64,000 bases of DNA. It comes from Stegostoma tigrinum (taxonomy: Eukaryota). Below the pieces are notes generated by a model. It was not told the origin of the DNA. It worked only from the letters and a program-made list of their open reading frames with translations, and ran no database searches. The stretch spans positions 41,162,182 to 41,226,181 of the forward strand of contig NC_081376.1 of assembly GCF_030684315.1 (NCBI RefSeq), written 5' to 3'. Each line of letters starts with the position of its first letter. Within the stretch, counting starts at the first letter, position 1. Below, piece by piece: positions 641 through 64,000 of this stretch. The position numbers were made by a program, and so were the translations under genes.

Positions 641-864
641 TGATAATGGGAACTGCAGATGCTGGAGAATCCAAGATAATAAAATGTGACGCTGGATGAA
701 CACAGCAGTCCCAGCAGCATCTCAGGAGCACAAAAGCTGACGTTTCGGGCCTAGACCCTTCATCAGAGCCTCTGATGAAGGGTCTAGGCCTGAAACGTCA
801 GCTTTTGTGCTCCTGAGATGCTGCTGGGCCTGCTGTGTTCATCCAGCCTCACATTTTATTATCT
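641..864. mobile_element. Penelope-like terminal-repeat fold-back insertion with two hammerhead-like motifs
   Basis: 15-bp TSD tgggtatgtgaatag at 626-640 and 865-879; inverted arms 671-767 / 771-867; same sequence as the 3' end of the PLE at 47912-49233. Confidence 0.85.
770..802 (+). ncRNA. Minimal type I hammerhead ribozyme-like motif (a mirror copy lies on the minus strand at ~736-768)
   Basis: CUGAUGA-A-GGGUCUAGGCCU-GAAA-CGUC; the minus copy has the better stem II GGGU-CUAG-GCCC. Confidence 0.65.
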
Positions 865-1029
865 TGGGTATGTGAATAGGATGGGTTTACGAGGGATTTG
901 GACCAAATGCTGGCCAATGGAACTAGATTTAATGTAGGATATCTGGTCAGCATGCATGAATCGAACCAAAGGGTTTGTTTCCGTACTGTACATCTCTATG
1001 ACTATAGAACTGTGTCACATCAGCACGGA

Positions 1030-2010
1030 AGATTAGGTCACCACAGAAAGCATGGAGTTTATTCAATAAGAATTTAAACAAGCTGTGCTGAAGGGTTCTT
1101 GCTTGACACAAGTTTACAATTTTAATAGCTTTCATCACGAGAGAAATCCAAAACTTTATCTGTTCATGTTTGTTGCTAGATTATAATGCTAACTGACAAA
1201 AGATGAGAAATCAGGACAATTTCTGCAATACATAACAAAGTCCGCATATGCAACAAGCATGGCTGGTGCGCCTTCTGTTGTGATTGAAATCAGTTTCTTG
1301 TTTGGAATGTTTTTCCCAAGCACATACCTTTGGAAGTATTTCCTCACTCTTATTCTCTTGTTAAGTGGTAAAAGGGTGAGAACGTCATCTTTAGGTGTTA
1401 TGCCCTTAAGAACTATGGGCATAAAATAATCAGTCATGTCAACGTATTCATCATACTACAGTGAGAAGTATGCACAGTTCTTCATTTACTGCTGCAGTTG
1501 ATGAAAGACATCTTTGGACAAAGATTCCACTCATCACAGAAGCACCAAGTGACATGATCTATATTGCTGTTGTTATTTCCTCTTTGTTCTTAAAAACCAT
1601 TGAATAAAGAATCAGCAACCGCAGTCATTGCTTTTTGAATTACTTCACCGTCTGCAAATGACTTTTTGCGTTCTGCCAGAAGATGTCAAATGCAAAATCA
1701 TGCTTCAGCACAAGCCTTACCTTTTGCTGCTGGTTTTGAAAAAAAATGACTGTTGAGCTTTCAAAACAGCCTTCAGCTTGTCAATTTTCTTTGTTCGAAG
1801 CATTCTGCTCAAGAAAAAACTATCCTTAGATTTACTGTGTATTGTTGCGGTGTCATTCCAAATTCCCCCTTCTACTTATCAATATAATTTAATGACATTT
1901 AAGACAAACACTCATCTTTTACAGTTGTGAATAGAAATTCAATTCCCATTCAGCACGGAAGTTCTACATTTTTAGTTTCTTCTCAGATGGTCCAGGTTCA
2001 TCATCCATCG
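1030..2010 (-). mobile_element. Degraded hAT DNA transposase (SPIN/GTF2IRD2-like)
   Basis: Minus-strand fragments MDDEPGPSEKK.., KLISITTEGAPAM (the TTDGAPAM motif) and ARTLQHSLFK, broken by stops and frameshifts. Confidence 0.75.
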
Positions 2011-3299
2011 TTATTGTTTCAACCTGCAGTTTGTGACAAAACTCTGCTGCACATAGGTCTCTGGATCCACGTTTCTAGAACATCCAGAATGTTGCTGGCC
2101 GCTTGAGTGTGAAGGCATAGGAGCTCACGTTTATGGTCATGATTTGTCTCCCCAGCTCTGTCAACAGTTCCCAAACTTCACAGATCTACTAGATAAGCAG
2201 CTGAACAAAGAAAAACTGCAGGTCTACAGAGAATAGACACAGGAGCTAAACTAATTGGGCTGTGCTTGCACTTGTCTGTTTGGACATGTTGGGCTGAACA
2301 GGCTTCTATATTTATAGCTGTGTAATATACTGGCTTCATACATCAGTTTCTAAGTTATTTCTGACTAAATTTGTTTACACCGCCACCGGAAAATTTATTT
2401 CACCCTCCAACAATTGACCATATGGACCAAACTGAAACATAATGCACCAAGCTCGCAGAGCCTGTTAAGAGAGTGTGCAGTTCCAGAAGCAGCACGTAAA
2501 CAGGTGGTGAGATCAACTATCAGACATTGAGTGATTAATGGTCCTAGAAGACAAGAGTAGCAAAAGCAGTGGAACAGCTCCAATTGAAAGTTTCCCTCCA
2601 AAGCCTTGAACCTTTCTGACTTCACCGTTTCTTCACAATCATTGGATCAAACATGAAAATACCCTTCGTAACAGTATAGTGATTATATCTAATCAAGGTG
2701 GACTGCAGCAGTTCATAAAGTGGCTCAAGAGCGCCTTTGAGGGCAATTCAGGATGGGCAATACTGGTTTTGCAACAACACTTACACTCTAGTAACAAATA
2801 AAAAACGTTTAAAAGGACGTTGATAGAACTGAATATTTTAAACTACAAGGTAAAATGAGGAGGGAGCCTGACAGGAATGTGGAACACACTCAGAAACCTT
2901 CAGCACATTTAAAGAGTACTTGGTTTGCATTTGAATTGCAATACCGGGAAGACAATGGACCAACTGCCAGAAAGTGGGATTAGGCTGGATGGTTGTCTTT
3001 TAGTCAGTGTACAGATATGACACAGATGACAGGTTAGACAGAGGATCTTGATCGGCGCAGTCTTGGAGGGCCGAAGGGCCTGTTTCTGTGCTGTGATTTT
3101 CTTTGTTCTTTGTTCTTTGACAGGCTAACACAGACCTCTTTCTCTGCTGTAAATATTTGTGATTTTAAGAAAGGAGATAATAGTACAGTTAAATCCAAGG
3201 AACAAAAAGACAACTTGAAATTCACACCATGTAATCGTGTCCTCAAGCCATTACAGCCATTTTACATTGGATTAGAGAACAATAGCATCATTAGTTATG

Positions 3300-3660: not shown

Positions 3661-5814
3661 GAACCATTTTCTAAAATCATCGACATGCAAACCATTATGC
3701 ACATAGTTAAATGTTTATTCTCATAATGTACTATATTTAATCATAAAATTGAATTCTGAAGAAGAGTCATAACAAACTCCAAACTGTTTCTCTTTCAACA
3801 GATGCAGCCAGGCTTGTTTTATTTCTCCAGCATTTTCTGTGCTTATTTCAAACTTCCAGCATCTGCAGTATCTTGCTTCAAGTGATAAATTCACTGCCAT
3901 TTATCTCCCAAGCATGCCCACCTTGAAGAAATCCTGTTCTTCTTACCAATTGGATTTCCATTTCAACATTTTGGCTCATTTGCTTTCATTGCTTTTTATC
4001 TCTCTTGCAGTGTTTGACAAAATATTTGCCAAAACTCACTTTCACAGCTACATCTCCTTCCTCAGTGATATCGCCAGCTCCACTTTACCCCACATGGAAT
4101 CCAACTGATGTTCCAACCTTCATGTTTAAAATCCGAAATTATAAGTATCTCCAAGACATATAATGCTCCTCAGACTGCAGCTTCTGCCACAACCTGAGAT
4201 CCATACTTAGTGCCATGTACTGTAGCATGCATGGCCCCTCTCTCCATCCACACTGCCTCATGATGTCTGAAAGCTGTCTTCATCTCCTGCTCCATTTCAT
4301 TCTCCAATTAATTCAACATTTTTAACAACAGACTTCTTTTTATCTTCCTTCCAAATGTTAAGGCATACAAGCTCCAAAACCTCAAGGCCTTCTGAAGAAT
4401 AGCCATATTGGACCCAAAATAACAACCGTTGCTTACTCCACAGATGCTGCCAGACCTGTTGAGTTTGTGCAACATTTTTGTGCTTATTTTTAACTATATT
4501 TATTGTTGTTGTTTGAGGAAGGCATGTTAAACTATAAAGCTTATTTGAAAGACGGCACCTCCAAAAATGCAGCACTCTGAGCAGTGATAAGTATTAAGGT
4601 AGGTTACATAATTACCAGACTGCAGCTTGAACCTTCAATCTTCCAAATCGGAGACAACAGGGCCACGTCAAATCTGATACTTGCTTGCATAAATTTTGGA
4701 ACTGGATTGGTTGCAACCTTGTCTCTAAACTTACTCAGTATTTGGGCCAAGTCTATGAATAGACTTTGGCACAATGTTTATTGTCCAAAATGCCTTCCAT
4801 CATTCCTAATAAAGTAACATTTCACCAGCAAAACCCACAACAGGCATTTCGTTTCAAAATAATTCCCTGTTAGTTTAAATACAATTCATTAAAAATTTTA
4901 AACACCTAGAAATCCACATTAAAATTTTCTGCTCACACCTCAAGTGAATTTACAACACAGCAGACCCCAACCATTATGGCTACTTGACGATGTACTCAGC
5001 AATTCAATTTGACAGCACCCCTCTCCACTGTGACTTCAACCGCCAAGAACAAAGTAACAATGTTGCAAAACACCAAGCCACAAACCCCGTGGCCAGATTT
5101 AGACATATATCACTATTTTCGTACCAGAAACTTGATGTTTCTGACCAATCGCTCATTATTCATGGAGAAGGTCCACCATCACCTTGCCAACACAACAAGG
5201 GATTGACAGTAAAGTAGCTCTGCTTCTTTGCCATGTCCTTGGCTAAATTTTAAGAAGATCTGTAACCTCTCAGCTTCAAAACAAACATTCATTTATATAT
5301 AGAAAACTGTAAGGTAACAGCAGGATCTGACAAAAAATGAACAAAGGTACTTAAAAAAATGTAATAAAATTTCCAGCATCCGCAGTATTTTGCTTTTCTT
5401 GAAGGAGATATTAGAATTGGTAACTAAAAATTTGATCAAAAATGATTAGATTTAAGGGTGTCCTTAAAAGGACATGGGGAGTATTGAACAGCATAAGGCC
5501 TCTATGGTTGAACACACAGTAACTTAGTGGGTACTGAGGTGTGGATATCTATAGGAGGAATACATGGGAGGGCATTACAGAAAGACTAGGGGTGTATCTG
5601 AACATGGGGAGATAAATTTGAAGTAAAGAGTGGTGGAAATCGACATGGGACAGTAATGGGCAAACTGGGCTTAATGCAAGTAAGCCTACTTTAGCACTCT
5701 AAACTTTCAGTCTCAAAGAGAAAAAGAATGGACATATTTATAACTCCCAACCTACTAGTGTAGATCCAGATTGAGCCTGGAAACGAGTCTTGTACAAAAC
5801 CTGGTGATTCCACA

Positions 5815-6187: not shown

Positions 6188-6352
6188 GATAACACAGCAG
6201 GCCAGGCAGCATCAGAGGAGCTGGAAAGTTGACGTTTCGGGTCGGGACCCTTCTTCTTCTTTCCTGCTCCTCTGATGCTACCTGGCCTACTGTGTTCCTC
6301 CAGCTCCGCACTGTGTTATCTCAAACTCCAGCATCGGCAGTTCTTACTATCT
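6188..6352. mobile_element. PLE-derived fold-back insertion with partial hammerhead motif on the minus strand
   Basis: Inverted arms (acacagcaggccaggcagcatcagaggagc / gctcctctgatgctacctggcctactgtgt); minus strand reads gaagaagggtcccgacccgaaacgtc; imperfect TSD ctggtcgtactg / ccggtcgtgctg. Confidence 0.7.
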
Positions 6353-7001
6353 CCGGTCGTGCTGCAGTCTCATTTTCAAGAATGCAACTCAGACCAGCTT
6401 GAGCCATTCTCAAATATTATCGGGTTTTCGTCCTGGTTTACAAAATGAAGAACGAGACGTTTATTTGGATTATACCAGGCACCTCAATAGTATGTTACTG
6501 CCTGAAGAATTGCCTGCCCTTCCATACAACCTTTATGAACGGGACCTGACAGCTGCCTAGGCCCAATATTACCAAGTGGAGTTTTCTGAGCTGGACGTGC
6601 AGGAAGGTCGAGCTGAGTGACGGCCGCGGGAGCCAATCGGCGGCTGAAGGCGAGTGTCAATCATCGCCCGGAGACCAATGGGACCTGGTATAGGCTGGTA
6701 CATCCGGTGTCAGGATGCTCACTTTCGTTGCGGTAAACAGGCCGCGGAACATCCTTCAAATGAAAACAAGGCGAGTAAAAGACCCTTTCCCCTCCAGGTG
6801 TGATGAGAGAGGAAGCAAAGTTGCCGAGTTTTTTTTTAGGGAATCGAAGCTTTCACCATCTGTAGGGTAACAACGCCTGGAGGGAGAGTAAGGGAACCAG
6901 TAGCCTTACCTTCACCACCCCACCCCCCATCCAATCTGAGAAATCGCACTGAGAAGTAACTTTAAAAGCTCCCAACCCCTGTCGGTACCGCAACCCCTTA
7001 C

Positions 7002-7056
7002 CTTGGGAGGATAGTTGCCTCACGCTGTTGACGAACTGCTCCAAGGCGGACGCCAT
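7002..7056 (-). CDS. COPS3: COP9 signalosome subunit 3, coding exon 1 (remaining exons not found in the window)
   Basis: MASALEQFVNSVRQLSSQ-G is nearly identical to the human N-terminus; 55 nt followed by a GTAAGG donor. Confidence 0.95.
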
Positions 7057-7200: not shown

Positions 7201-7304
7201 GGTGTTACCAGAGGCTGATCTGAAGAAGGGTTACTGGACTTTGACTCTGCTCTTCTTTCACCTAACCCCCTCCCCCCAGGTGCTGCTATGTTCCTCTAGT
7301 GACT

Positions 7305-7845
7305 TATATTTTTGTTACAAGAGCCTCTTGTGGTACAGCCCCCACCTCTGGGCCAAGAAAGCCTAGATTCAGGTCCCATCTGCTTCTGAATGTGTCATAA
7401 CATGTTATAGACAATTTCTAAAGTTATATTACAGTAGGCTCTTGTGGTACCCTGGGTTCAAGTCCCACCCTGCTCCAGAGTTTGTATTAATAGTTTGATT
7501 AGAAAATAAGTTGATTAAAAATATCTAAATGAAAACAGAAGTTTTCTTCCAGGTCTGGTAGCATCTGTAAAGAAAAAAAATAATATTTCAGGTCTGGTGA
7601 CCCTTCCTCAAAAATTGTTTTCAGAGCTTTTGCAGCAACTTCTGTTTTTATTCCTGATTAACAGCATCTGCATTTTTCGTTTTTGGAAAATATCTAAAGC
7701 AATGTTACAAGAGGCTCTTCAAGTGCACTGGTAGTGTCCCCACTTATGATTGAGGAGACCCTGGGTTCCAGTCCCAGCAGTTTGCTGAGTTGTGTCATGA
7801 CACATCTGGATGGATTACTTTAAAAATATGTAAAGCTGTATTGTA
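7305..7845 (+). repeat. Three degenerate tandem tRNA-like SINE heads, with a PLE fold-back (7530-7686) inserted
   Basis: Repeated g.ctcttgtggtac..ggttcaagtccca..tgtcata/tga units; 12-bp TSD aaaatatctaaa at 7518-7529 and 7687-7698. Confidence 0.6.
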
Positions 7846-8147
7846 CTTTTCAGACACACAATCACCAATTTGCTTCCATTTTGTTAACTTGCATTTTTGC
7901 TTATTTGCAAGTGTCCCCTGGGGTAGGGAATCTTCCATCTGTTACTCACAAAGTTTCACACTTGTGTGAAGTCATCGAAAGCTATAAACTAGATTCTGTA
8001 AATCTGGAGTACAAACAGAAAGCACTGTTTAGATAAACATTTGAAAGACCATAATGTACAAACCAAGAGCTGGAAAATGGGATTAGGCTGCTGACCAGTG
8101 CTGAGACAATGGACCATAGGACCTCCCACTGTGCTGTGTTTAAAAAA

Positions 8148-8350
8148 AATTATGCTGGAGAAAGTCAGCAGTCTGGCAGCATCTGTGGAGCGACAAACAG
8201 AGTTAACATTTCAAATTCAATGACCACTTCAGATCTGAAGAAAATTATTCTGAAGAAAAGTTATACCAGACACAATGTTCTCTCAGTTTCTCTCTCCACA
8301 CACACTGCCAGACCTGCTGAGTTTCTCCGGCATCTTCCGTTTTTATTTCT
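8148..8350. mobile_element. Old PLE-derived fold-back remnant; similar remnants at ~55010-55170, 57020-57180, 61283-61360 and 62945-63130
   Basis: gctggagaaagtcagcagtctggcagcatctgtggag is inverted against ctccacacacactgccagacctgctgagtttctccggc; central ctgaaga motifs. Confidence 0.6.
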
Positions 8351-9825
8351 AATGAGCAAAATAAAAGACACTTCACCTGTGTCATGGGGGTGAGGTGGGA
8401 TGGGTTTAGATTCCTTCAGAACATAACAGCAATAGGCAATGAGTAATTTTAAAGGAACTGAAGCTTACAAGTTATCTTTTGGAGTCCCAGTGCTATCATT
8501 CCTTTGCCTAGCTAAGTCACAGCTGCAGTCCCTGCTCAACTGAGACTCCTGGGGTCAGTCTCCCACAGGCTGTCCAATACATTAGGGACAAAAAGCACCC
8601 CTTAAGAGGCACAGAGACAAAATATGGGGCAGTTCCTTAAATTAATGTTCAGATGGTCTCCCTGAGATCCATAGCAATGTGGCTGACTTTTAACTGCCCT
8701 TTGAAGTGGCCCAACAAACCAATCCATTCAAGGGAATTAGGGATGGACAACAAATGCTAGCTCTGTCACTGATGCTCATACTCCATGTAAGAATACAAGA
8801 AGGTAGTTTTAGGCCTTGTTTTAAACAGTCGTGCCAATAATGCAGTCAAAGGATTTTTCTTTCACATTAGAATTATGCTAATTTAACAATTTACTACAAT
8901 ATAGAATTGGAATAAGAACATGAAAACAGGAAATACTGGAAGTGCAGGTCTTGGCAGCAACTGGGGAGTGAAAAATTGAGTCAAGAACAGTTCAGAAAGA
9001 AAAAAAATTTCATGATGCCTTTCATTAACTTACTATACTCCAAAATATTTTACAGTCAATGAAGTATCTTTGAAGATAAGTTACTGTTGTAACACAGCAA
9101 TACAAGAACAAGTCAGTGTGAATGCTGAAAATCTGAAATTAAAAACAGCAAATGCAGAAAGTATTCTGCCAGGTCTGGCTGTATTTATGTAGATAGAAAC
9201 AGAATGAATGTTGAAACTTAGCTCAGTTACTCTGAATGAATTAGAAATGATTGTCATCCAATATCTACCATTTTTTAAATCTATATTTAACACAATGTAA
9301 TGACAATGCAGAACTAATTGTAAATATGATCATCTATACCCATGATTTTCTCATCTTTTTCCCAAATTTTTGTCTCCTCACTTGTATGTGAAAATTTCTC
9401 AATGCTTGGTATTATTTCATAAGTTTAAGAAGCAGCACAGTTCCTTATTACGCAAGAGGGCAAGGTCAGTTGTAAGCAGTCAACAGTCAAATACCTATGG
9501 CAGCACTCTGCATCTAAGATACAAAAATGAAGAATGACCATTTGTTTAATGTTCTGGAAGATAATCAATGGTAAGGGAGCAATTCTCTGGAATTGATAAT
9601 GACTTTGGCAGAATTTGAACAGGCTGTTTTAGCATTCTGGTTGTGTTACTGGATGAACAATTAAGATGCCCAGATAATAGATCCAGAGAATGAGTTTAAA
9701 TTTCACACACAGCAGCTGGGGAATTTCAATTAGTTTTCTTTGTTCATTCACAGAATGAGAGTTCACTGGCTAAGCGAACATTTCTCACCCATTCCAAATT
9801 TCTTTTTGTAAGTAGTGGTGCCTTT

Positions 9826-12800
9826 TAGAACATAGAACATAGAACATTACAGCACAGTACAGGCCCTTCGGCCCTCGATGTTGTGCCGACCTGTCATACC
9901 GATCTCAAGCCCATCTAACCTACACTATTCCATGTACGTCCATATGCTTGTCCAATGACAACTTAAATGTACCTAAAGTTGGCGAATCTACTACCATTGC
10001 AGGCAAAGCGTTCCATTCCCTTACTACTCTCTAGTAAAGAAACTACCTCTGACATCTGTCCTATATCTTTCACCCCTCAATTTAAAGCTATGTCCCTTGT
10101 GCTCGCCGTTAACATCCGAGGAAAAAGGCTCTCCCTATCCACCCTATCTAACTCTCTGATTATCTTATATGTTTCAATTAAGTCACCTCTCAACCTTCTT
10201 CTCTCTAATGAAAACAGCCTCAAGTCCCTCAGCCTTTCCTCGTAAGACCTTCCCTCCATACCAGGCGACATACTAGTAAATCTCCTCTGCACCCTTTCCA
10301 ATGCTTCTACATCCTTCTTATAATGCGGTGACCAGAACTGTACACAATACTCCAAGAGCGGCCACATCAGAGTTTTGTACGGCTTCACCATAACCTCTTG
10401 GTTCCGGAACTCGATCCCTCTATGAATAAAAGCTAAAACACTGTATGCCTTCTTAACAGCCCTGTCAACCTGGGTAGCAACTTTCAAGGATCTGTGTACA
10501 TGGGCACTGAGATCTCTCTGCTCACTTACACTGCTAAGAATCTTACCATTAGCCCTGTACTTTGCCTTCCGGTTACTCCTACCAAAGTGCATTACCTCAC
10601 ACTTGTCTGCATTAAACTCCATTTGCCACCTCTCAGCCCAGCTCTGCAGCTTATCTATGTCTATCTGCAACCTACAGCATCCTTCGTCACTATCCACAAC
10701 TCCACTGACCTTCGTGTCGTCTGCAAATTTACTAACCCATCCATCTACGCCCTCACCCAGGTTCATTTATTAAAATGACAAACAGCAGTGGACCCAACAC
10801 TGACCCTTGCGGTACACCACTAGTAACTGTCTCCAGGATGAACAGTTCCCATCAACTACCACCCTCTGTTTTCTGTCAGCAAGCCAGTTTCCGATCCAAA
10901 CCGCTATATCTCCCACAATTCCATTCCTCCGCATTTTGTACAATAGCCTATTGTGGAGAACCTTATCGAACTCCTTGCTGAAATCCGTATACACCACATC
11001 AACCGGTTTACTCTCATCTACCTGTTTGGTCACCTTCTCAAAGAACTCAATAAGGTTTGTGAGGCACGACCTTCCCTTCACAAAACTGTGCTGGCTATCC
11101 CTAATCAATTTATTCTTTTCTAGATGATTATAAATCCTATCACTTATAACCTTTTCCAACACTTTACCAACAAGTGAGGTAAGGCACACTAGTCTATAAT
11201 TACCAGGGTTGTCTCTACTCCTCTTCTTGAACAGGGGAACCACATTTGCTATCCTCCAGTCATCTGGCACTATTCCTGTAGACAATGACGAGTTAAAGAT
11301 CAATGCAAAAGGCTCGGCAATCTCCTCCCTGGCTTCCCAGAGGATCCGAGGATAAATCCCATCCGGCCCAGGGGACTTATCTATCTTCACCATCTGAAGG
11401 CTTTCTAGTACCTCTTCCTAGTGAACCTCAATCCCACCTAGTCTAGTAGCCTGTATCTCAGTATTCTCCTCGACAACATTGTCGTTTTCTAGAGTGAATA
11501 CTGTTGAAAAATATTCATTTAGCGCCTCCCCTGTCTCATCTGACTCCACACACAACTTACCACTACTATCCTTGATTGGGCCTAATCTTACTTTTGTCAT
11601 TTGTTTATTCCTTAAATGCCTATAGGAAGCCTTAGGGTTTACCCTAATCCTATCCACCAACAACTTCTCAAGTCTCCTCCTGGCTCGTCTGAGCTCTCTC
11701 TTTAGGTCTTTCCTGGCTACCTCATAGCCCTCAAGTGCCCTAACTGAGCCTTCACATCTCATCCTAACATAAGCCTTCTTCTTCGTCTTGACTAGAGATT
11801 CCACCTCCTTCATAAACCACGGCTCCCGCACTCTACAGCTTCCTCCCTGCCTGACAGGTACATACTTACCTAGGACACACACGAAGTTTGCCTTGAATAA
11901 GCTCCACATTTCTACTGTGCCCATCCCCTGCAGTTTCCTTCCCCATCCTATGCTCCCTAAATCTTGCCTAATCGCATCGTAATTGCCTTTCCCCCAGCTA
12001 TAACTCTTGCCCAGTGGTATACACTTATCCCTTTCCATCACTAAAGTAAACATAACAGAATTGTGATCGCTATCACCAAAGTGCTCACCTACTTCCAAAT
12101 CTAACACCTGGCCAGGCTCATTACCCAGTACCAAACCTAATATTGCTTCGCCCCTTGTTGGCCTATCTACATACTGCGTCAGGAAGCCCTCCTGCACACA
12201 CTGGACAAAAACTGACCCATCTATAGTACTCAAACTATAGTGTTCCCAGTCAATATTTGGAAAGTTGAAGTCCCCCATGACAACTACCCTGTCTCTCTCA
12301 CTCCTATCGAGAATCATCTTTGCTATCCTTTCCTCTACATCTCTGGCACTATTGGGAGGCCTATAGAAAACTCCCAAAAGGGTGACCTCTCCTTTCCTGT
12401 TTCTAATCTCAGCCCATACTACCTCGGTTGACGAGTCCCCAAACATCCTTTCTGCAACTGTCCTTGACCAACAGTGCCACACCTCCGCCCCTTTTACCAT
12501 CTTCTCTGTTCTTACTGAAACATCTAAATCCCGGAACCTGCAACAACCATTCCTGTCCCTGCTCTATCCATGTCTCCGAAATGGCCACAACATCGAAGTC
12601 CCAGGTACTAACCCATGCTGCAAGTTCACCCACCTTATTCTGGACGCTCCTGGCATTGAAGTAGACACATTTCAAACCAACTTCTTGCTTGCCGGTGCCA
12701 TCTTGCTTCCCTGGAACTTTATTCTGGACCACCCTACTCTCAACCTTTTCTATAGTCGAACTACAATTTTGGTGCCCATCCCCCTGCTGAATTAGTTTAA

Positions 12801-13250
12801 ACCCACCCAAATAGCCTTAGCAAATTTCCCCCCGAGGATATCGGTACCCCTCTGGTTCCGGTGAAGACCATCTTGCTTGTAGAGGTCCCACCTACCCCAG
12901 AAAGAGCCCCAATTATCCAAGAATCCAAAACCCTCCCTCCTGCACCATCCCTGTAGCCAAGTGTTCAACTCCTCTCTCTCCCTATTCCTCACCTCACTAG
13001 CACGTGGCATGGGCAACAAACCAGAGACAACAACTCTGTTCGTCCTAGCTCTCAGCTTCCACCCTAGCTCCCTGAATTTCTGCCTTAAATCCCGCTCTCT
13101 CTTCCTACCTATGTCGCTGGTGCCAATGTGGACCACGACTTGGGGCTGCTCTCCCTCCCCCTTAAGAATCCCAAAAACACGATCAGAGACATCACGCACC
13201 CTGGCACCTGAGAGGCAACACACCAACCGCGAGTCCCTCTCGTCCCCACG
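9826..13250 (-). mobile_element. Near full-length, relatively young CR1 LINE (partial ORF1 esterase; ORF2 APE endonuclease + RT) with a few frameshifts and stops
   Basis: SGNH-type ORF1 (12792-13226), APE motifs YFNARS/ISETW/MGDFN/SDHN, RT motifs KSPGPDGI and KFADDTK; (atgttct)n 3' tail at 9826-9847. Confidence 0.95.
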
Positions 13251-13339
13251 AGAGAGATATCAAAGATCAAAAAACGCAAATTTCTGTCTCTTGTACCAAC
13301 TCCTCAGACACGCATTCATCTGCTTTATCCTGCTATTCC

Positions 13340-14000
13340 TTCTATCACTAGCAAGTGGCAACAGGAGTAATCCAGGTATTATTACCCTTGAAGGCCTACT
13401 TCTTAACCTCCTGCCTAGCTTTTCATATTCTCCCCTCAGAATTTAGTCCTTTTCTCATCCTATGCCAAGTTGTACAAAGACCTCTTGTGGGTCACTCTCC
13501 CCTGTGAGAATATTCTTCACCCTCACCAAGACAATCTTGATCCTGGCATCAGGGAGGTTACAAACCATTTTGGTGTCTTGGTGTCATCAGTAGAAACGTC
13601 TATCTGACTGGGCAGTCCCCTATCAGAATCAATCACTTGCAACCTGACGTACCCTTCATTATATCAGAGTCAGTCTCAGTACCAGAAACTTGGCTGTCAG
13701 TACAACAATCCCCTGAGAGTTCATTATACCCTACATTTTCATTACAGCATACTTATTTGAGGAATGATAGTCACAGGAGATTTTTGCTATTCCTGCCTAC
13801 TACTCATTTCATTCTTAGAGGTAACCCATCTACCCAACTGGATCTGCTGTTTTTCTACCTTCTGGAAACTGCCATCCATCACACACCCTGGTTTCTGTAA
13901 ATTTCTCATGCCTCTAACTGCCATTCCAACTGATCAATGCAATCTGATAAGATTCACAACCAAAAATACATCAGGAGCATTGAATTTTTGTTTAATCTCC
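13340..14000 (-). mobile_element. Older CR1 ORF1 fragment
   Basis: Degenerate similarity to the ORF1 region of the adjacent CR1 (cctggcatcagggagg..caaacca). Confidence 0.5.
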
Positions 14001-47911: not shown

Positions 47912-49233
47912 TTACCATACCTCACCTTCCTGGACCCCTCAGTCTCCATCTCAGGTAACCAGCTAGAAAGTGATTTCCATTTCAAGCCCACTGATTCCCA
48001 CAGCTACCTAGAATACACCTCCTCCCACCCACCCTCCTGCAAAAATTCCATCCCCTATTCCCAATTCCTCCGCCTCTGCCGCATCTGCTCCCACGATAAG
48101 GCATTCCACTCCCGCACATCCCAGATGTCCACGTTCTTCAAGGAGCGCAACTTTCCCCCCCGCAGTGGTCAAGAACGCCCTTGACCGCGTCTCCCGCATT
48201 TCCCGCAACACATCCCTCACACCCGGCCCCCGCCACAACCGCCCCCAGAGGATCCCCCTCGTTCTCACATACAACCCCAATCTCTGGATTCAACGTATCA
48301 TCCTCCGACAGTTCCGCCATCTACAATCCGACCCCACCACCCAAGCCATTTTTCCATCCCCACCCTTGTCTGCCTTCCAGAGAGACCACTCTCTCCGCAA
48401 CTCCCTTGCCCGCTCCACACTCCCCTCCAACCCCCGCGCACCCAGCACCTTCCCCTGCAACCACAGGAAGTGCTACACTTGCCACCACACCACCTCCCTC
48501 ACCCCCATCCCAGGCCCCAAGATGACCTTGCATATCAAGCAGATGTTCACCTACACATCTGCCAATGTGGAATCCTGTATCCATTGTACCCAGTGTGGCT
48601 TCCTCTACATTGGGGAAATCAAGCAGAGGCTTGGGGACCGCTTTGCAGAACACCTCCGCTCAGTTCGCAACAAACTGCACCTCCCAGTCGCGAACCATTT
48701 CAACTCCCCCCTCCCATTCCTCAGACGACATGTCCATCATGGGCCTCCTGCAGTGCCACAATGATGCCACCTGAAGGTTGCAGGAACAGCAACTCATATT
48801 CCGCTTGGGAACCCTGCAGCCCAATGGTATCAATGTGGACTTCACAAGCTTCAAAATCTCCCCTTCCCCCACTGCATCCCAAAGACAGCCCAGCCTGTCT
48901 CTGCTTCCCTAACCTGTTCTTCCTCTCACCCATCCCTTCCGCCCACCTCAAGCCGCACTTCTATTTCCTACCTACCACCTCATCCCGCCTCCTCGACCTG
49001 TCCGTCTTCCTTGGACTGACCTATTCCCTCCCTACCTCCTCACCTATACTCTCCTCTCCACCTATCTTGTTTTCTCTCCATCTTTGGTCCGCCTCCCCGT
49101 CTCCCTATTTATTCCAGTTCCCGCTCCGCATCCCCCTCTTTGAAGAAGGGTCTAGGCCCGAAACGTCAGCTTTTGTGCTCCTGAGATGCTGCTTGGCCTG
49201 CTGTGTTCATCCAGCTACACACTTTGTTATCTT
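47912..49233 (+). mobile_element. Penelope-like element (Neptune-type), 5'-truncated: RT C-terminus, Cys linker, GIY-YIG endonuclease and terminal repeat
   Basis: IPYSQFLRLCRICS, CNHRKCYTC and CIHCTQCGFLYIGEIKQRLGDRFAEH; hammerhead-like motif at 49140-49170; candidate TSD gaa(c/t)ttacttt. Confidence 0.9.
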
Positions 49234-49389
49234 GAATTTACTTTGGTAATGTTCATGTACAATTTGTAAAAGAAAAGCACTTGCATATATTGAATATAAA
49301 AGTAGTTTTTTTTAAAAAGCAATTTCATGACCAGTACCATCACAGGATCATTAAGATTAGTACAAAGACAACTATTTTCAATTGATATT

Positions 49390-49555
49390 GAGTTTTGAGA
49401 AGATTTGTAGCTCAGGTTGAGGTTCTGGATGGGAGTTTTCTCGCTGAGCTGGAAGGTTAGTTTTCAGACCTTTCGTTGGAGGCTCACTGATGTTACCTAG
49501 AATGGTGACGAAACATCTGAAAACTAACCTTCCAGCTCAGTGAGCAAACTCACAT
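49390..49555. mobile_element. Short PLE (Poseidon-type) fold-back insertion
   Basis: 11-bp TSD caattgatatt at 49379-49389 and 49556-49566; inverted terminal-repeat halves. Confidence 0.8.
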
Positions 49556-49584
49556 CAATTGATATTTTTGAAAGATCTTTCTTT

Positions 49585-50324
49585 ACGAGTTTTGAGAAGA
49601 TTTGTAGCTCAGGTTGAGGTTCCGGATGTGAGTTTGCTCGCTGACTTGAAGGTTAGTTTTCAGACCTTTCGTCACCATTCTAGGTAACATCAGTGAGCCT
49701 CCGAAGCGCTGGTGTTATGTCCCGCTTTCTATTTATCTGGTTAGGTTTCCTTGGGTTGGTGATGTCATTTCCTGTTCTTTTTCTCAGGGGATGGTAAATT
49801 GGCTCCAAGTCAATGTGTTTGTTGATGGAATTCCGGTTGGAATGCCATGCTTCTCGGAATTCTCGTGCATGTCTGTTTGGCTTGTCCTAGGATGGATGTG
49901 TTGTCCTAATCAACGTGGTGTCCTTCCTTATCCGTACGTAAGGATACGAGTGATAGTGGGTCAATGAACATCGACATGACCCACTATCACTCGTATCTTT
50001 ACATACAGATAAAGGAAGGACACCACTTTGATTGGGACAACACATCCATCCTAGGACAAGCCAAACAGACATGCACGAGAATTCCTAGAAGCATGGCATT
50101 CCAACCGGAATTCCATCAACAAACACATTGACTTGGAGCCAACTTACCATCCCCTGAGAAAAAGAACAGGAAATGACATCACCAACCCAAGGAAACCTAA
50201 CCAGATAAATAGAAAGCGGGACATAACACCAGCGCTTCGTCAGAGGCTCACTGATGATGTTACCTAGAATGGTGACGAAACGTCTGAAAACTAACCTTCC
50301 AGTTCAGCGAGCAAACTCACATCC
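49585..50324. mobile_element. Palindromic PLE insertion (two inverted 3' ends)
   Basis: 12-bp TSD agatctttcttt at 49573-49584 and 50325-50336; arms 49624-49963 / 49977-50324; 13-nt spacer; EFLEAWHS endonuclease tail. Confidence 0.9.
50248..50287 (+). ncRNA. Intact-looking minimal type I hammerhead ribozyme motif
   Basis: UCA-CUGAUGA-U-GUUACC-uagaau-GGUGAC-GAAA-CGUC|UGA: 6-bp stem II, 3-bp stem I and palindromic ACGU stem III. Confidence 0.7.
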
Positions 50325-50910
50325 AGATCTTTCTTTGTATTTCTAAGACTGTTTCCAGGGTAATTAGTGGACAAAAAAAATTGTACAAAATTCAGAACTT
50401 TGCAATACAGACAGTATACATAGTAACGAGCAGAACATTGTGTTTTGAACTTTTTATCCACAGAGCTAGGAGAATAAAACATTTTACCCGTGGTCATTAA
50501 TGATAATTAGCCAAGGCAAGAAGGTGACCATAATATATAGTGACAGCAGCACCACAACAATTTGGCTGTGGTTTTGGCTACCAATAAATGTGTAGGAGTT
50601 TTATATTGACAAAATCCAAATATGTCACTGCAACAGTCAACATTTCACTAACCAGCTAAAACTAAGCTAAGTAAACACCACTGTGAACTGTGTTGAGAAA
50701 TACCAGTCCTGCAAGCAAACACAAACACTTGGAAAAACTTAAATGATTGCACATTCCCACTTAAAATCCAAAAGTAAAAATAATTATTTTTGAAATTAAT
50801 TATGTAATTATACATAACCTTTTGTTACGTTCAATAAGAGTTCATTTCTTTTTATTCTTAGCATCTGAAAGACATTTCAAAGACAAGGTGCATTCAAAGT
50901 TTGATAGTAC

Positions 50911-52900: not shown

Positions 52901-55900
52901 AACGAGTTGCTCACTCTTTCCACATTTGGCGGGGAGTACAGTACTTCTGAGCATTTGTTAACTATGACACATTCTACCTAACTACCTGAACTTAACGAAA
53001 CACTAATCCACTGCCTCAAACCCAACATAAATATGTAGACTGGATAATTACATCTCTTTTCCCTTACTGAAACTTATTTACTCCCCAGTCATACATGGAT
53101 CCAGTTAATGCAAGGCAATGCTCCTCTACCTATACTGTTCACCTCACTCCTAAGTAGTGCAATTATGTATTGGAACAGGAAGTTGCGTCATGAATTCAAG
53201 TCAGACCACAAAGATGCGAAACTGAATTCATTAATATGTGCTTATATCTGCGAGCCAACACGAGTAAACAAAATGCTTTAATGCTGTCTAACAATTTACT
53301 TCCGTATGTTGTTGACTACTAATGACCTCTGAAAAAAAAACTGCAAAACTCAGTTTTGAATTGGATAAAAAAAATGCAGTCTTACTAATGTCACCTTTTC
53401 TACATGTCCCGATTACAAAAAAAAATTGTTCTCGTTTTTCCCAGTCATTATCCACAAGAACCATTCTAATGGAATGAATTTAAACATTTTTTTATTTTGA
53501 ATTATGGACAGGTTTTTCCACTGGGAATCAGGACCAGTGAGAATATGCTTTAAATAAGACACCCAGTTATCAATTAAACCCATCTGTAGACCATTTGGAT
53601 TATATTTATAATAAAAAGGTACCAAATGTAAAATGACAAAGATTGCAACTGTGTATGACTTTTTAAAAAAATAAATGTACCAACTGGATGACGATAAACA
53701 TTAAGTTGTTCATTTTACTTAGAGATATAAGACAGTGACCTATTGCTTTGAAAGCAAGACTTCAAATCATTTTAAGCATATAGAAACTTAAACAAGCAAC
53801 AGTAGAGGTCAAAGTTCCAAAGGTGCAAAAAAAATCCTCATTTTTAGAAGAACAAATTCAAAAGCTGAGAAGTTACGTTAAACTCTGAGCCTTGGGTAGC
53901 TCAAACCCTCAAACAGAAAAGGGTGCCTGCAATTCAGAATAAAATTTTTCATTGCTGGAGGACATTTATTCTGAACATAATCAAGAACGTAAAGACAAGC
54001 TTTGCGAAAGTCTAAACCAAATAGGTCCCTTTGTATAACTATTCAGTTTCTCAGTTGTCACTTTCATGGCCTTCAAATGAGTTTCACTTTTTGGCACATA
54101 ATGGCTGTGTGCTGTGGACACATCCAACAAGAACATAGTTATGATTACACTCAGCATAAGCAAAACTGGCTGGGTTCAGACAGCAGTTTTCAACACAAGA
54201 CAACTGAATACAAATCCACAATGGCCATCAATTTTTACACATAAAATTACCCACATAATGACAAAACTTTATTCAACTGGCTGACATGTTGCCACTATAC
54301 TCTGTCTGGCCGACAAAATTCAAAACAAATGTATCAATTGCCCCTGAAATGACCAAGCAAGCCACTCATGTAGAACGAATTGCAATTGTAAACAGGAAAT
54401 ATTAGCTTGACGCTGCAATTCACTTTACAAGAACAAATAAAAGCCATTACTTTCAATGGCAGCATTTATGCTTAAATAAATCTTAGCATATTATTTAGAG
54501 TACTTCAAAAAGAAATCCATTAATAATAAATATTTCATTTCATATATTTCCCTAATGCACTGAAATATCAATACATTATGCAACAAGTTACATTGAAATG
54601 TAATCTAACTAAATCATTCTGGACTAGGAACATGCTAAAATAGCAATGAGGTTGCTAAGTCTTTTTTTGTGTGATTACTTGTAGAAGGAACATTGGACAG
54701 GACACCAGAAAAATCTCCTATCCTTCCTTGAACAATGCCAATCAACGTGAATTACCCAAAATAGACAGTTGTGATCTTCATTCTATTTCTTCAGGGAAAA
54801 AATAATTATACAGTTCATTGCCATTCAGTACAATGGCGTATGCCATTGGAGACTAAGTATCAATATCAATTTGGGACCTGATCATACAAACTATCGATCC
54901 AACTAATAATTGCCTGCATAATTTTTTAATTACACTCAAGTTATCCTGCTACCTTTACAAATAAATTTGGGTCAGATTGTCACTACCAAAACAGGTAATT
55001 CTAATCAGGAGGTCTGGTGCACCTGTGGAGAGAGAACAACATTAATATTTCAAGTCCGACATGGCTCCTCTTAACTCTCTCTCTCTCCCCCACAGATGCA
55101 GCCAAATCCATTGAATTTCTTCAACATTTTCTCCCCAACAAGATTTCTAGCATCTGTACTATTTTGCTTTTACTATAGCATAAAGTGGGGGGGGGGGCGC
55201 GCGCGCGCTCACATTGGAAATTTCTGGACTCAACAGAAAATGCCACATCAGATCAAGCGAGTGAACGAGGGAGTGTGCACACATGCTGGAGTTTGGCCCA
55301 CTTCTCTGAAAATAACTGAATCAGACAGGAGTAGCCAGGTGCTGAGGTGAGCTATTTAAAAAGGTCTACGTCTGTTCTCTGGCATTTGTCCCAATTATTC
55401 GCGCTCTTGATCCCTCAGTGCTCCACACTCAATCCCCATGTCATGTTCATGCCAACTCGTGACCTCACTCATTCCCATGGCTCTTATACCTTCTATGCCA
55501 AATCATACTTTCCTTGCCAATTCATAATGCTCCCATGTACTGTATAGAGACCATGAGCTGATAGTAACAATGCCACATGAGGAAGTGCTTAAGAAACATC
55601 AATTTATCATTCTCAATAAAATAGTGCTGCTGCTAAAACCTTATAGCAGTATCGAGAACTTTACAGCATTAATAACAGAAGCACTTGACATCGCTAACTT
55701 GGGCAAATAATCAAGCTGACAAAAATTGATCACAATAGAATTAAAACTCAAGTCTTTCAAAATGTTTGTGTTTATTCAGTTTGTTCACTTGTTAGTTAGA
55801 GTTAGATAAATACTTGTTGATTATAAAAAGTGAATATCAGGGGTTTATTTTCTTAACTACTAAAAGTTGTTGGGAAGCATGTTACACCACTTTTCACATT

Positions 55901-56960: not shown

Positions 56961-58086
56961 CCGGATTTCCCGAAAGATCTGGAATCAAAACAGAAAGACT
57001 GCTGCCTTATTTCAAAAACAAAGAAAAGACCTGAAGATGCTGGAAATCTCAACAGAGGTTGAAAAACTGAGCAGGCCTGGCATCATCTGCGGAGAAAAAG
57101 CAAAATTTCGAATTTCCAGTCAGCCTGCTGGCACTCGAATGGAAACAGAAAATTCTGGAATTATTCAGCAGCACCTATTGAGAGTCAAATAGAGTTAACA
57201 TCTCAGTCTTTATGACCTTTCATGAGAAGGGAACGTTAGAAATGCCTCATCATTGTCATTTAATGTCTCCTACATCCCATCTGAGCTACAGGTCACAACA
57301 ATCTTTTGGTTTCCATCTTTCCCTATTTTACTTTTATAAAACCTATACATGTATATATAAATCTTTCCAGTTGTGAGGAAAGGCCGTGATCTTAAACATC
57401 ACCTCTCCCTCCATATATGCTGTCAGACATGCTGGGTTTTCCAGTATTTTGTTTGTATTTTGGATTTGTGGCATTTGCAGTATTTTGGTGTGGTCTTTAT
57501 AATGACATCTTCCATGGACAAAAGCCTTGCTAGTCAGTGGAGTACTTTTGAACTGTAATGATTGTTGAAATGCCATATGGTAACCATTTTAAGAAGGGCA
57601 GGTGGCAGCATTAATTTGAACACAAACAACAATAAGCTAATTATCAAAAAGTTTTATTTATTGTTGCTTGAGGGATAATAATTGGGCAGTATAAGAGGAA
57701 TATAGCTCTCTCCTTCTCACATTCCTTTTTAAGATTGTACCAAGGGATTTTGCCTAAAAAAAGCGCATCCAATAAGCACTCACAGCAATCTTTCGCCAGA
57801 AGTGCTGAGTTGATAACTTGTCTCAGCATCCTCCCACATTACGGATGCCAGTCTTCAACCAATTCAATTCACTCCACGTGGTATCAAGAAATGGTTGGAG
57901 GCACTGGATGCTGAAAAAGCTATGGGCCCCAACAACATTTTAGCAAGAGTACTGAAAACTTGCATTTTGGAACTTGCCACTCCCCTCATCAAGTTGTTCC
58001 AGTGCAGCTACAACACTGGCATCTATCCAACAATGTAGAAATAGCACAGGTATGTCCGGTACACAACAGAAGGACAAATCCAACCT

Positions 58087-58189
58087 AAGATAACAAAGTG
58101 TGGAGCTGGATGAACACAACAGGCCAAACAGCATCTCAGGAGCACAAAAGCTGACGTTTCAGGCCTAGACCCTTCATCAGAGAGGTCTG
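58087..58189 (-). mobile_element. Solo PLE terminal-repeat fragment with hammerhead motif, inserted in a LINE fragment (57815-58230)
   Basis: 11-bp TSD aaatccaacct at 58076-58086 and 58190-58200; minus strand reads ctgatgaagggtctaggcctgaaacgtc. Confidence 0.8.
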
Positions 58190-60960: not shown

Positions 60961-61559
60961 GAGGTGTTTACTTAGACAGTTTCTTTAGAAACTTAGGTGT
61001 AAGGTTCTAGATTACAGAGCTGCCATTTGCCAGGTGAGATAAATCAAGGATGAACACTTTGAACATGTAATGACATCAGATTTGAAAGTTATGGAGAACA
61101 GTACCCGAGGGGTGGGAGAAAAAGATTGTTTGCAATACGCTAGCAAAGGGAAGGTGAGGAGCCATTTAGTGCGGATAAGGTCACATGAGCAGGATATTTA
61201 TATGGCTTTTTAATTCTTTAGAAGAAGCATAAGAGCACAATATGGTGCCTTAATGTCAATTGACAAACAGTAAAAATAAGAACAAAAACAAATTTGCTGG
61301 AAAAGCTCAGCAGGTCTGGCAGCATTTGTTTCTGATTTACAGCATCCGCAGTTCTTTTGGTTCTTAAAAGTACCTCCTTTTGGAAGGACACAGCTAAGGG
61401 CGAACTAAACCACAAACAAAGAAAGCTTATAAAATTAAATAATATTGCATTTAGAATTTAAGTGTAATGATATTGTACGTTCGTTTTTAAACACATATAT
61501 AGATGCATATTAACTTTGAACTTAGAATGTCTTACGGTGAGTGTTCTACCATGAGTGCC

Positions 61560-61695
61560 CTTAACCACGTGCTCATTGTGTTCACCGGAAGTGACTGCAG
61601 AGTGAAGATTAAAGGGCAAAGGTTGAAGGTGGCGGTGTTGTTCCTGTGTGTTGTGTGAGTGAGTGAGTGAGAGGAGGAGGTTTGTTTGGGTAGCT
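61560..61695 (+). promoter_or_regulatory. PARN promoter/5' UTR
   Basis: E-box CACGTG at 61566-61571, ETS/GABPA ACCGGAAGTG at 61584-61593, and a downstream GC-rich island. Confidence 0.65.
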
Positions 61696-61714
61696 ATGGA
61701 GATCACCAGGCAGA
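61696..61714 (+). CDS. PARN: Poly(A)-specific ribonuclease, 19-nt coding exon 1
   Basis: ATGGAGATCACCAGGCAGA|GTAAGT gives MEITRQ (human MEIIRS, also 19 coding nt as recalled); head-to-head with BFAR as in human; not in the ORF track. Confidence 0.8.
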
Positions 61715-64000
61715 GTAAGTTCGAGAGGGACAAGTCTTTGGGCTCTGGGTTAGCGGATTAACGGGGGAGTCGGGACAGGAGTGTGTAGGATGCGGATGCG
61801 GTGAAACCCAAGCGGTTGGGGCCGCTTTGGAGGCAACGTTTCATTTTTGGGCCCAGGCCGGAGTGTTCGGCTGAATGCAGAGCCCCGCGTGGGTCGGGGT
61901 CAGGGGGAAAGGGCTGGGCTTTTAAGGACTTATCGATAGGGTTCGGTGCAAGGAGGGGGAGGGGGGGATGGTTTGTGTGGCGGTACCTGTTGACAGGGTT
62001 CAGTGTAAAGGAAAAGTGATAACCTGCGGCACATCCGCTCCTTCCACGTGAGAACAAGCTGTTCTTCCCGCCCCCCACTCCGTGTAGTCAATATTTGCGA
62101 AGTGCACGTTACACTTTTGCCTCTATCCTCTTGACCTCCTCTGGGCAGCCGCTGTAAAGTCCCTGGTCGCATTGATGTTTCCACGCCTCTTTGCATTTGA
62201 CTGTACGAAGGCGTAAAGCTTCATGGTACCTACTGTAAACGAAATACATGCTTTTATTTAATGCCTTTCATAGTCTCAGGATATCGCAAGGTGCTTTACA
62301 GCCTGTTAAGTATTTATTGATGTGTAATCTTTGATCTAATGTTGCTAAGAGTTATGTGAAATTCCTCTGATTTATAATTTGTGTGAAGCTGTTTTTTAAT
62401 TTGTAAGTAATATGTATAACGTTCAGCTGTCAGTAATGGTTCCCAAATTATTTTCTGCAAATAATAAATAAATCTGGGCCAGCAGTGCTGCTGCACCAGC
62501 TTTTCTGACTCTTATTCTGCTGTAGTGAATCTCCCCTTTTGATCAGTTCCTATGAAAAGTTTAATGTTCAAACAGTCTGCTTGCTCCCTCATTTGTATGC
62601 ATTGGTTGGATAATGAAGGAAGGAATTGGCTTGATCTGAAAAATGCAAAGTAGTGAATGGATTACAGTTATTTTTAAAATGTATATCTACACAAGACCTC
62701 TCATGATCTTGATGTCTTGAAGTGCTTTAAAGTAACTTAATTAAATGTTGAGATGTGTAGTATAGAAAAGGTGACAATCAAGTTTGTTCATTGTTCTACA
62801 AACAGTAAGATGATTGTGACCTGAAAACAACCACATTATTACTGAGTGCTGTAATGTTCAGGGCACTGTGAGGACTGCCCTGCTCTTTGATTTATGCACT
62901 GAGATCTTTCTCATTCACATAAGGCTGACAGTCTATCTGGTTTGCAAAACCAAAACTGAGGATCCTGAAGTTCTGAAAGAAAGAGGAGTTGCTAGAAAAT
63001 CTCTGCATCTGTGGAGAGAGATCAGTTAACATTTTGCGTTCAATTCTGAGGAAAGATCACTGAACCCAAAATATTAATTAATTTCTCTCCACAGATTTGC
63101 TGATATTTTCTGGCAATTTCTGTTTTTGTCTCCATTTTGTGTTTTATGTAAATATGACATTTCTGACCATGGCATACTCTCTCAGCACAATACTGAAGTT
63201 TCAACAGTCTTGTACTCTAGTGTCTATCGTAGGACACGCCAATAATCTCTCTGACTCAAGTGAGCATATTACAATTTGTGCTGCAGCCGATAACTGAGTC
63301 TATTTCAGTTGGCTTTTCTTTCCTCCAGGAATAATAATATGGTAGAAGTGAGTGGACCAGCACTATTCTGGTATTTGGACTGAAGCATTATTTTTGTTTC
63401 CTTGACACACAAGAAAAGCAGGAATTTGACCTGCATTTTACTGAATTAATTGCTGTAATATTTGAGTCTCTACTTGAATAGTGACTTGACAAAATGCCAC
63501 TGAGCCATTCCTGTGCTGTTGAGCATATTGAAATATTTTTAAGGATCTTTATGTACCTCTAACAATTAGAGCTGACAGTCAATCTGACTTCATTTGTTTG
63601 GCTTGAATTCTTACTGTACAAACTGGCAAAGCTATTACATGTAACAGTAACAACTTGTATAATGTCTGCAACATAATAAAAGGCACAGATATGCTCATAG
63701 GTGCATTATAATGTAAAAGTCACACCTAGACTAAATTTATTCAAAATGCAGCGAATATTGCTAAACTAATTTCTGGGATTGTCCTGTGAGGGAAGTTTTA
63801 AGCATAGGGTGATCAAATAAGTTTTTAGAGTCAGCAAAAGCCTGGAATGGTTATTGTAGAGAAAATAAAACAAAAACCAAGAATTAGTTTAGGAAAAATA
63901 GAAAAGCTGTAAATGAAAGTTGAAAGCAGCAAAAATGCCAAAGTCCTCCAATACCAAAATCAAATTAGAGTAGTTTTTTAAATTAAGAGCATTGTACCTA

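Follow-up and report, generated by a model that had tools for sequence, protein, structure and literature searches.

What are the short pieces of 100–130 nt per unit, many of them arranged as fold-backs, that carry traces of a hammerhead ribozyme along one stretch of the zebra shark genome? The stretch analysed (the window) comprises 64,000 nt of Stegostoma tigrinum NC_081376.1, positions 41,162,182–41,226,181 of the forward strand, and all coordinates count from its first letter. The initial annotation described a non-coding population and proposed a separate non-autonomous system, resembling short interspersed elements (SINEs), MITEs (miniature inverted-repeat transposable elements) or retrozymes. 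The pieces match the tail ends of Penelope-like elements (PLEs) with coding copies in the same window, so they are likely dead-end products of a known class. With a probability of roughly 0.75, they are the hammerhead-bearing 3' ends (pseudo-long terminal repeats, pLTRs) of PLEs, inserted by those elements' own enzymes from their own RNA.

The window contains 17 short units with a total of 2442 bases (3.8% of its length), which fall into three families: A (641, 58087, and the diverged 6188), B (49390), and an old family C (13 units). Searching with profiles made from the window's own copies retrieves all 13 coordinates cited by the initial annotation and adds 8920, 9137, 49390–49557, 57143, and 57372; the reversed window yields one match at E = 1.0 and none below. 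The graded age claimed for the pieces is borne out, with family A copies being 89–95% alike and 12 family C arms being 61–80% identical to their majority line. The short units are the following:

641–864, left arm on the minus strand (641–768) and right arm on the plus strand (770–864): family A fold-back within a CR1 3' fragment
3752–3872, plus strand: tailed single unit of family C, core decayed, no target-site duplication (TSD)
4388–4492, plus strand: family C single unit, decayed core, no TSD
6188–6354, both strands: asymmetric fold-back related to family A (A'), 10-bp TSD with one mismatch (p 0.06)
7214–7312, plus strand: strongly decayed family C unit (profile E 0.009), 11-bp TSD with one mismatch
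7530–7686, left arm on the minus strand (7532–7612) and truncated right arm on the plus strand from 7624: probable family C fold-back
8145–8352, both strands: family C fold-back, both arms extending to the hammerhead 5' edge (self-BLAST 82% over 60 nt), no significant TSD
8920–8982, minus strand: family C fragment, uncited by the initial annotation (profile E 0.0013)
9110–9238, minus strand: strongly decayed family C unit with tail, likewise uncited (profile E 2e-5)
23800–23925, plus strand: best preserved family C single unit, G12 lost; the family A profile also matches (E 3e-6)
49390–49554, both strands: short family B fold-back (165 bp) with broken cores and a tail on just the left arm
55000–55172, both strands: probable asymmetric family C fold-back, opposite-facing profile matches (E 9e-5 and 3e-5), no self-BLAST match, no TSD
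57020–57232, minus strand: two equally oriented family C arms (57024–57120 and 57143–57229), both decayed, not detected by the tandem-repeat program TRF
57370–57482, plus strand: tailed family C unit pointing away from the arm at 57143–57229 (profile E 7e-8)
58087–58189, minus strand: family A single unit without tail, intact core at 58180
61275–61362, minus strand: 3' half of a family C unit, without hammerhead (profile E 1.5e-10)
62950–63135, both strands: family C fold-back with tail on the left arm (self-BLAST 75% over 150 nt), no TSD

The pieces had been called a non-coding population, which does not hold throughout, since three coding PLE remnants, 3031 bases in total, bear the same hammerhead units:

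47912–49233, plus strand: 5'-truncated Neptune-type PLE, 11-bp TSD with one mismatch
49585–50324, both strands: long coding fold-back of family B (740 bp), two inverted 3' ends with the endonuclease C terminus, tail on the left arm only
33570–34538, plus strand: old coding PLE remnant with an upstream partial pLTR/tail (33570–33627), no TSD

The remnant at 47912–49233 shows, in this order, a reverse transcriptase (RT) thumb, a CxxxxCxxC linker, a frameshifted GIY-YIG endonuclease, a pyrimidine-rich 3' untranslated region (UTR), and a family A hammerhead at 49140, in which C3 is changed to U; it terminates at the no-tail 3' end. Its frames at 47921–48716 are 81% identical to the S. tigrinum protein P0002 and 77% to P0003, a gene model of Rhincodon typus, with 90% identity over 77 amino acids (range of the matches 77–90%). 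P0003 exceeds the Pfam cut-off for GIY-YIG and stays below it for RVT_1, and the full-length relative P0049 exceeds it for RVT_1; the window pieces by themselves give no Pfam match. The zebra shark gene model P0002 reads through this same family A unit at its C terminus. The linker reads CNHRKCYTC in the window translation and fits the CX2-5CxxC pattern between RT and endonuclease that is given as a mark of Neptune and Nematis (PMC8557442). By this motif, which Nematis shares, the family A partner would be an endonuclease-bearing (EN+) PLE of the Neptune clade.

The 49585–50324 fold-back shows 94% identity over 716 nt and an intact hammerhead at 50251(+), and the remnant at 33570–34538 contains broken RT-thumb and endonuclease frames, a decayed family B hammerhead at 34432, and a tail. 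Both are likely Poseidon-type, a clade label assigned from motifs. The hammerheads at 49140, 50251, and 34432 are all located downstream of endonuclease-coding frames, that is, in the pLTR position. Hence, families A and B terminate coding PLE remnants. The short A arms are 89.7–93.8% identical to the end of the coding copy and 88.7–94.8% to one another; among the four arms compared, no separate short-only lineage is visible, and the unit aligns colinearly with the coding pLTR over its full length. A separate non-autonomous system is thus not supported for families A and B, whose units are the 3' ends of coding window PLEs; family C may still have a non-autonomous origin. No open reading frame (ORF) lies next to any family C unit in the window. 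Family C units are matched by the family A profile at E 3e-6 to 0.4, and both families have a tail motif in common; family C probably represents an earlier wave from a Neptune-type relative of A.

Short and coding copies also agree in their insertion marks. TSDs were tested for 19 units with boundaries placed by eye ±12 and 400 random intervals as the null, the p values being uncorrected for multiple tests. Exact TSDs of 11–15 bp, several of which had been claimed, occur in five of the 19 (p about 0.002): 641 (15 bp, 626–640/865–879), 7530 (12 bp, 7518–7529/7687–7698; the self-match of this unit is just 12 nt), 49390 (12 bp, 49378–49389/49555–49566), 49585 (12 bp, 49573–49584/50325–50336), and 58087 (11 bp, 58076–58086/58190–58200). 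An 11-bp TSD with one mismatch flanks 7218 and 47912 (p 0.027), and 6188 is borderline (p 0.06). Taken together, TSDs of 10–15 bp are found in eight units, five of them exact, and are absent in the other 11 tested. A CR1 paralogue at 34539–34819 contains a single copy of the 641 target, as expected of an empty site.

The 641 fold-back has a tail of ~32 nt on its left arm (641–672) and none on its right arm; intact hammerhead cores lie at 766(-) and 772(+), and each arm begins 2 nt upstream of C3. The fold-back at 6188 lacks C3–U4 in its left arm (-), and its right arm (+) begins just past the cleavage site and bears the tail. One-sided tails of ~32–37 nt are present on 641, 6188, 49390, and 49585, the tail being optional. 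The claim that many pieces are fold-backs stands for five of the seven short ones proposed, in which self-BLAST finds clear inverted arms; 7530 and 55010 are indicated as such solely by opposite-facing profile matches. The two family B fold-backs of 165 bp and 740 bp are neighbours 30 bp apart with different arm lengths, and in both the arms are head-to-head, the right arm lacks a tail that the left one has, and the TSD measures 12 bp. Fold-back junctions vary among window copies. Single-arm copies and fold-backs have the same TSD class. Thus, the same 3' end, the optional one-sided tail, and the 11–15-bp TSDs are common to short and coding copies. The proposed mobilisation by PLE RT and GIY-YIG endonuclease is supported by the TSD class and 3' ends shared with the coding copies.

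Some observations on the fold-backs stand apart. The stretch 47901–50336 is a local insertion cluster, with three PLE insertions (one Neptune-type and two family B) in 2.4 kb, each with its own TSD and separated by spacers of ~150 and 30 bp. The two adjacent family B insertions, despite their different TSDs, have core-breaking variants in common (49424–49557 and 49621–49705): the CUGAUGA box has lost the same 3 nt at 49485(+) and 49696(-), and the left arm of each insertion reads GAAAG instead of GAAAC. Either mobilisation occurred twice from a source whose hammerhead was dead, or gene conversion took place between the neighbours. At 6256–6262 and 55072–55085, one arm of an asymmetric fold-back begins within ~2 nt of the predicted cleavage site. 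These arms (6188 and 55010) were considered as cleavage products, a candidate that was dropped because microhomology deletion fits equally well.

How much of the hammerhead is left in these units? A strict minimal-hammerhead descriptor finds four intact cores (772+, 766-, 58180-, and 50251+) versus a mean of 0.01 in 100 shuffles. These cores show all of the following: an extra base after A9, G10.1–C11.1, a palindromic ACGU (15.2–16.2), and helices I and II. The shark hammerheads are minimal, with a helix I of 2–3 bp and no loop III. The PLE origin and the minimal type I hammerhead of the initial annotation are hence upheld by these four cores and by the coding remnants that end in the same units. 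A covariance model from 35 non-shark metagenome hammerheads matches five family A arms at E<2e-4 and the other arms at E>=0.6. Among 17 Rfam matches, no hammerhead family appears up to E=5; the hits are microRNA (miRNA)-type hairpins below the gathering score. Both core boxes, which most pieces had been said to contain, are intact in only four of 19 arms and in none of 10 old family C arms. The gatgctg..gacctgctg motif that had been taken for the ends is internal to the unit, with GATGCTG ~45–60 nt past the first core base; the exact form GACCTGCTG occurs three times in the window. The ATG within GATGCTG was tried as a PLE start codon and rejected, as a profile of the N termini of 19 long relatives gave no match to the window arms.

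Two comparisons had been named as checks on the hammerhead, core versus flank conservation and covariation in stem II, and neither refutes it. The 15-nt core (CTGATGA + GAAACGTC) is identical in families A and B, and the sequence downstream of it is unrelated (20% identity versus 33% shuffled). Helix II pairs 2–4 differ on both sides between A and B (GC/UA, GC/UG, and UG/AU), and pair 1 of helix I is flipped, as counted by motif anchoring in a comparison of two families and without a statistical test. Since the core is identical and the downstream sequence unrelated, with helix II changed on both sides, the motif is conserved between the source elements. Helix I is also visible outside sharks: in 68 distinct metagenome motif types, its pairs 1–3 are paired in 49, 58, and 56 types versus 36, 39, and 32 shuffled, in counts that ignore relatedness and stem from a search pattern that fixed the outer helix II pairs and left helix I pairs 1–3 free.

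Within inserted copies, the motif decays. G12 is kept in four of 12 family C arms; the CpG containing it is kept in none of them, and eight have TpG or CpA there. Old copies thus decay at CpG sites, the one with the catalytic G12 included. In family C the CUGANGA box is 88% conserved, a value biased by the choice of arms and not used as a signal of selection. The 641 fold-back is predicted to form a single extended hairpin (-188 kcal/mol, z -29) in which both cores are buried, and helix II is missing from the minimum free energy (MFE) structure of three of the four monomers tested.

Where the units begin and end can be followed beyond the window. Contigs of four sequencing runs were mapped on 48400–49300, X1 and X4 having one organism label and X11 and X15 two others; contig depth is not taken as copy number, and X15 is only presumed to be RNA. 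Contigs of all four runs cover the endonuclease ORF, the UTR, and the family A unit. The loose ends listed behind 49231–49232 amount to 1582, 3136 + 999, 783, and 217 contigs in the four runs, with a flank agreement of about 0.4, and 342 contigs of X1 are listed with a loose end behind 49238, running on into the tail, which gives two classes of 3' ends. On the 5' side, loose ends before 49141 are listed for X1 (788), X4 (1157), and X15 (72) and none for X11. Because C3 at 49140 has a private change in this copy, the 5' boundary is placed at ~49136–49141; unit 5' ends cluster no more than ~5 nt away from the first core base. The best-supported loose ends listed for the DNA runs include none at the cleavage site (49167/49168). 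A loose end of 13 X15 contigs at 49168 was rejected as a cleavage end, since it continues as variant hammerhead sequence. In X4, 33 contigs join 49232/49233 back to 49136/49141 as head-to-tail repeats versus >4000 loose 3' ends. The head-to-tail family A repeats of X4 are candidates for true non-LTR retrozymes elsewhere in that species. Three opposite-strand joints are listed, all different and with 1–3 contigs per run; perfect palindromes may hide in contigs.

The core pattern has no match in viral contigs and marks 119 loci in metagenome contigs. By blastn, only locus L089 matches the window, and the match is confined to the core; there are therefore no additional shark copies among these loci. 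Head-to-head arms that reach the hammerhead are found in 20 of the 119 loci, 14 of these within 68 nt, and thus the geometry is not shark-specific. At L015:2001-2087, L054:2001-2100, L061, L111, and L115, two head-to-head minimal hammerheads lie 23–42 nt apart, like the shark fold-backs.

Most of this anatomy has precedents. As far as the consulted parts of the reports on EN+ PLEs of the Neptune and Penelope/Poseidon groups describe them (PMC3846280 and PMC8557442), insertions are 5'-truncated and may carry head-to-head inverted pLTRs, a tail of 30–40 bp at one end, short variable TSDs, and solo pLTRs, with RT followed by GIY-YIG and, in Neptune, the linker. Inverted pLTRs with a one-sided 31-bp tail, an 8–10-bp TSD, and solo pLTRs are likewise in print there. 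The hairpin form, which the initial annotation suggested might be under-described in sharks, is hence already described for PLEs. What sets the shark units apart from insertions as presented in these sections is that many consist of the last 100–130 nt alone, with their 5' ends accumulating along the hammerhead's upstream edge. The minimal PLE hammerheads outlined by Cervera and De la Pena 2014 (PMC4209133) agree in the extra base at 9/10.1, G10.1–C11.1, the palindromic 15.2–16.2 without loop III, and the CUGANGA/GAAA core; thousands of mostly single copies are ascribed there to truncated PLEs, and opposite-strand pairs occur 100–700 bp apart. By these accounts, helix I measures 4–5 bp in Schistosoma motifs and 2 bp in D. 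virilis, compared with the 2–3 bp of the shark. In D. virilis Penelope, the transcript is described as beginning inside the pLTR, and an intron ends at helix I (PMC2377424 and PMC4209133). In the window, a polypyrimidine run with CAG as its end at 49105–49117, ~25 nt upstream of the family A hammerhead, resembles a splice acceptor.

For Anolis Poseidon, Frangieh et al. 2024 (PMC11167929) report nicking and extension of both target strands and RT starts at two internal RNA sites on either side of the tail; hammerhead cleavage requires protein and is dispensable for insertion in vitro. Uncleaved RNA is the dominant template there, and none of the public RNA reads end at the cleavage site. The shark units resemble this system in their two 3' ends flanking the tail; the Anolis work was done in vitro and on Poseidon, whereas the shark families are known here from sequence alone. 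Non-LTR retrozymes, as published (PMC7229834 and bioRxiv 10.64898/2026.07.22.740005), are also non-coding, with a type I hammerhead, a pLTR origin from PLEs, and dispersed monomers; they are defined by head-to-tail tandems with an intact hammerhead per unit and by circular RNAs. The shark window differs from them in its single and head-to-head units, tandems being a minority of one sequencing run. Altogether, the units have the EN+ PLE insertion features tested, whereas the features tested for SINEs and MITEs, and inside the window those of tandem retrozymes, are lacking. A shark-specific description of such units was not found by title or abstract, Repbase, Dfam, most subscription journals, and preprint supplements being beyond the search.

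How would such pieces arise? By analogy with the biochemistry of Anolis Poseidon (PMC11167929), the GIY-YIG domain would nick both target strands, and the RT would start at either of two internal RNA sites flanking the tail. It would copy ~100–130 nt of uncleaved RNA and, as we infer here, often stop at the upstream edge of the hammerhead. A single cDNA would give a single unit, and two cDNAs, one per strand, would be end-joined into a head-to-head fold-back whose tail is confined to one arm. Coding remnants would result from a longer RT run. The element ends would not be set by self-cleavage. The stop at the upstream edge of helix I could reflect the 5' end of the RNA, a block by structure, or self-priming with an antisense strand as template, the last of which Arkhipova et al. 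2013 proposed for head-to-head copies (PMC3846280).

Several points weigh against this origin as PLE 3' ends. The 5' pile-up, which sits at the hammerhead's upstream edge and not at the cleavage site, is the detail that PLE insertion explains less well: a sharp 5' boundary is also expected of a discrete small element, and random 5' truncation does not predict it. The head-to-tail repeats of short units in 33 X4 contigs are a minority that resembles retrozymes. For family C, which makes up 13 of the 17 short units, the window holds no coding partner, and the four family A arms compared are too few to exclude a short-only subfamily. Support for the ATG in GATGCTG as an ORF start is lacking too.

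A doubtful alternative makes the 100–130-nt unit an independent non-autonomous retroposon, SINE-like or made of dispersed non-LTR retrozyme monomers, that is transcribed from short or tandem masters and uses PLE proteins in trans. It accounts for 5' and 3' ends that are fixed across hundreds of contigs and for the 33 head-to-tail joints of X4, and a non-autonomous origin is most open for family C, given its missing coding partner. As published, pLTR sequences are enough for mobilisation in trans (PMC3846280), and vertebrate retrozymes arise from pLTRs, with one chondrichthyan positive (bioRxiv 10.64898/2026.07.22.740005). Against it, short and coding copies have not diverged among the four A arms. 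Self-cleavage products would begin at the cleavage site, whereas the units begin ~30 nt upstream and keep the whole core. A SINE-like unit is disfavoured as ARAGORN finds 0 tRNAs in the window, the 17 Rfam matches include no tRNA, 7SL, or 5S family, and A and B boxes occur together in none of the 17 units. For a retrozyme, the window offers no tandem array of the unit by TRF, the same-strand arms at 57024–57229 being decayed, and its hammerheads are minimal, with helix II predicted to be missing in three of four monomers.

An equally tentative idea keeps the PLE origin and regards the hammerhead as a pairing and stop signal more than a knife. Herein, two RNAs would pair via the palindromic helix III ACGU and be held by a dimeric PLE protein; both nicked target strands would be copied, and both cDNAs would halt at the upstream edge of helix I.

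It is improbable that the short units are remnants of longer PLE insertions that were trimmed later by hairpin-centre deletion or by recombination between direct pLTRs. Such trimming would fit the microhomology at the junctions of the asymmetric fold-backs 6188, 7530, 49390, and 55010 and the presence of long palindromes such as 49585–50324, and recombination or deletion is proposed for some solo pLTRs in PMC3846280; however, the 641 unit is symmetric, each of its arms starting 2 nt before C3, and the 5' pile-up at 49136–49141 is too sharp for scattered deletions. Least likely are MITE-like DNA transposons moving as hairpin units, a reading suggested by small, inverted, dense, TSD-flanked fold-backs and already largely refuted by TSDs that vary from 10 to 15 bp, by ends that are not mirror images because the tail is on one arm, by junctions that differ among window copies and among the listed contig joints (1–3 contigs per run), and by single-arm copies with the same TSD class.

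The remaining features of the window are genes and other repeats:

~6997–7056, minus strand: COPS3 exon 1
~16069–16278, plus strand: NT5M-like first coding exon
10077–13446, minus strand: near-complete CR1-type long interspersed element (LINE) with a GDSL-esterase ORF1 and with AP endonuclease and RT frames containing stops and frameshifts
28679–30222 and 32833–33560: additional CR1 pieces

The COPS3 and NT5M-like exons are divergently oriented, and the family C units 7214, 7530, and 8145 lie directly upstream of the COPS3 start.

As a class, these units are ordinary: PLE pLTR hammerheads have been published, and so have the inverted copies, the tails, and the TSDs. The stubs, ~4% of the window, are prone to being miscalled as miRNA hairpins, MITEs, or SINEs unless they are recognised. 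The sharpness of their 5' boundary at the edge of the hammerhead offers an inexpensive genome-scale way into the completion of PLE reverse transcription and on the role of weak hammerheads. If the hammerhead does act as a pairing and stop signal, one step would explain the 5' boundary, the hammerhead-joined fold-backs in sharks and in unrelated metagenome loci, and the upkeep of a barely active ribozyme, and the shark genome would hold very many datable records of that step.

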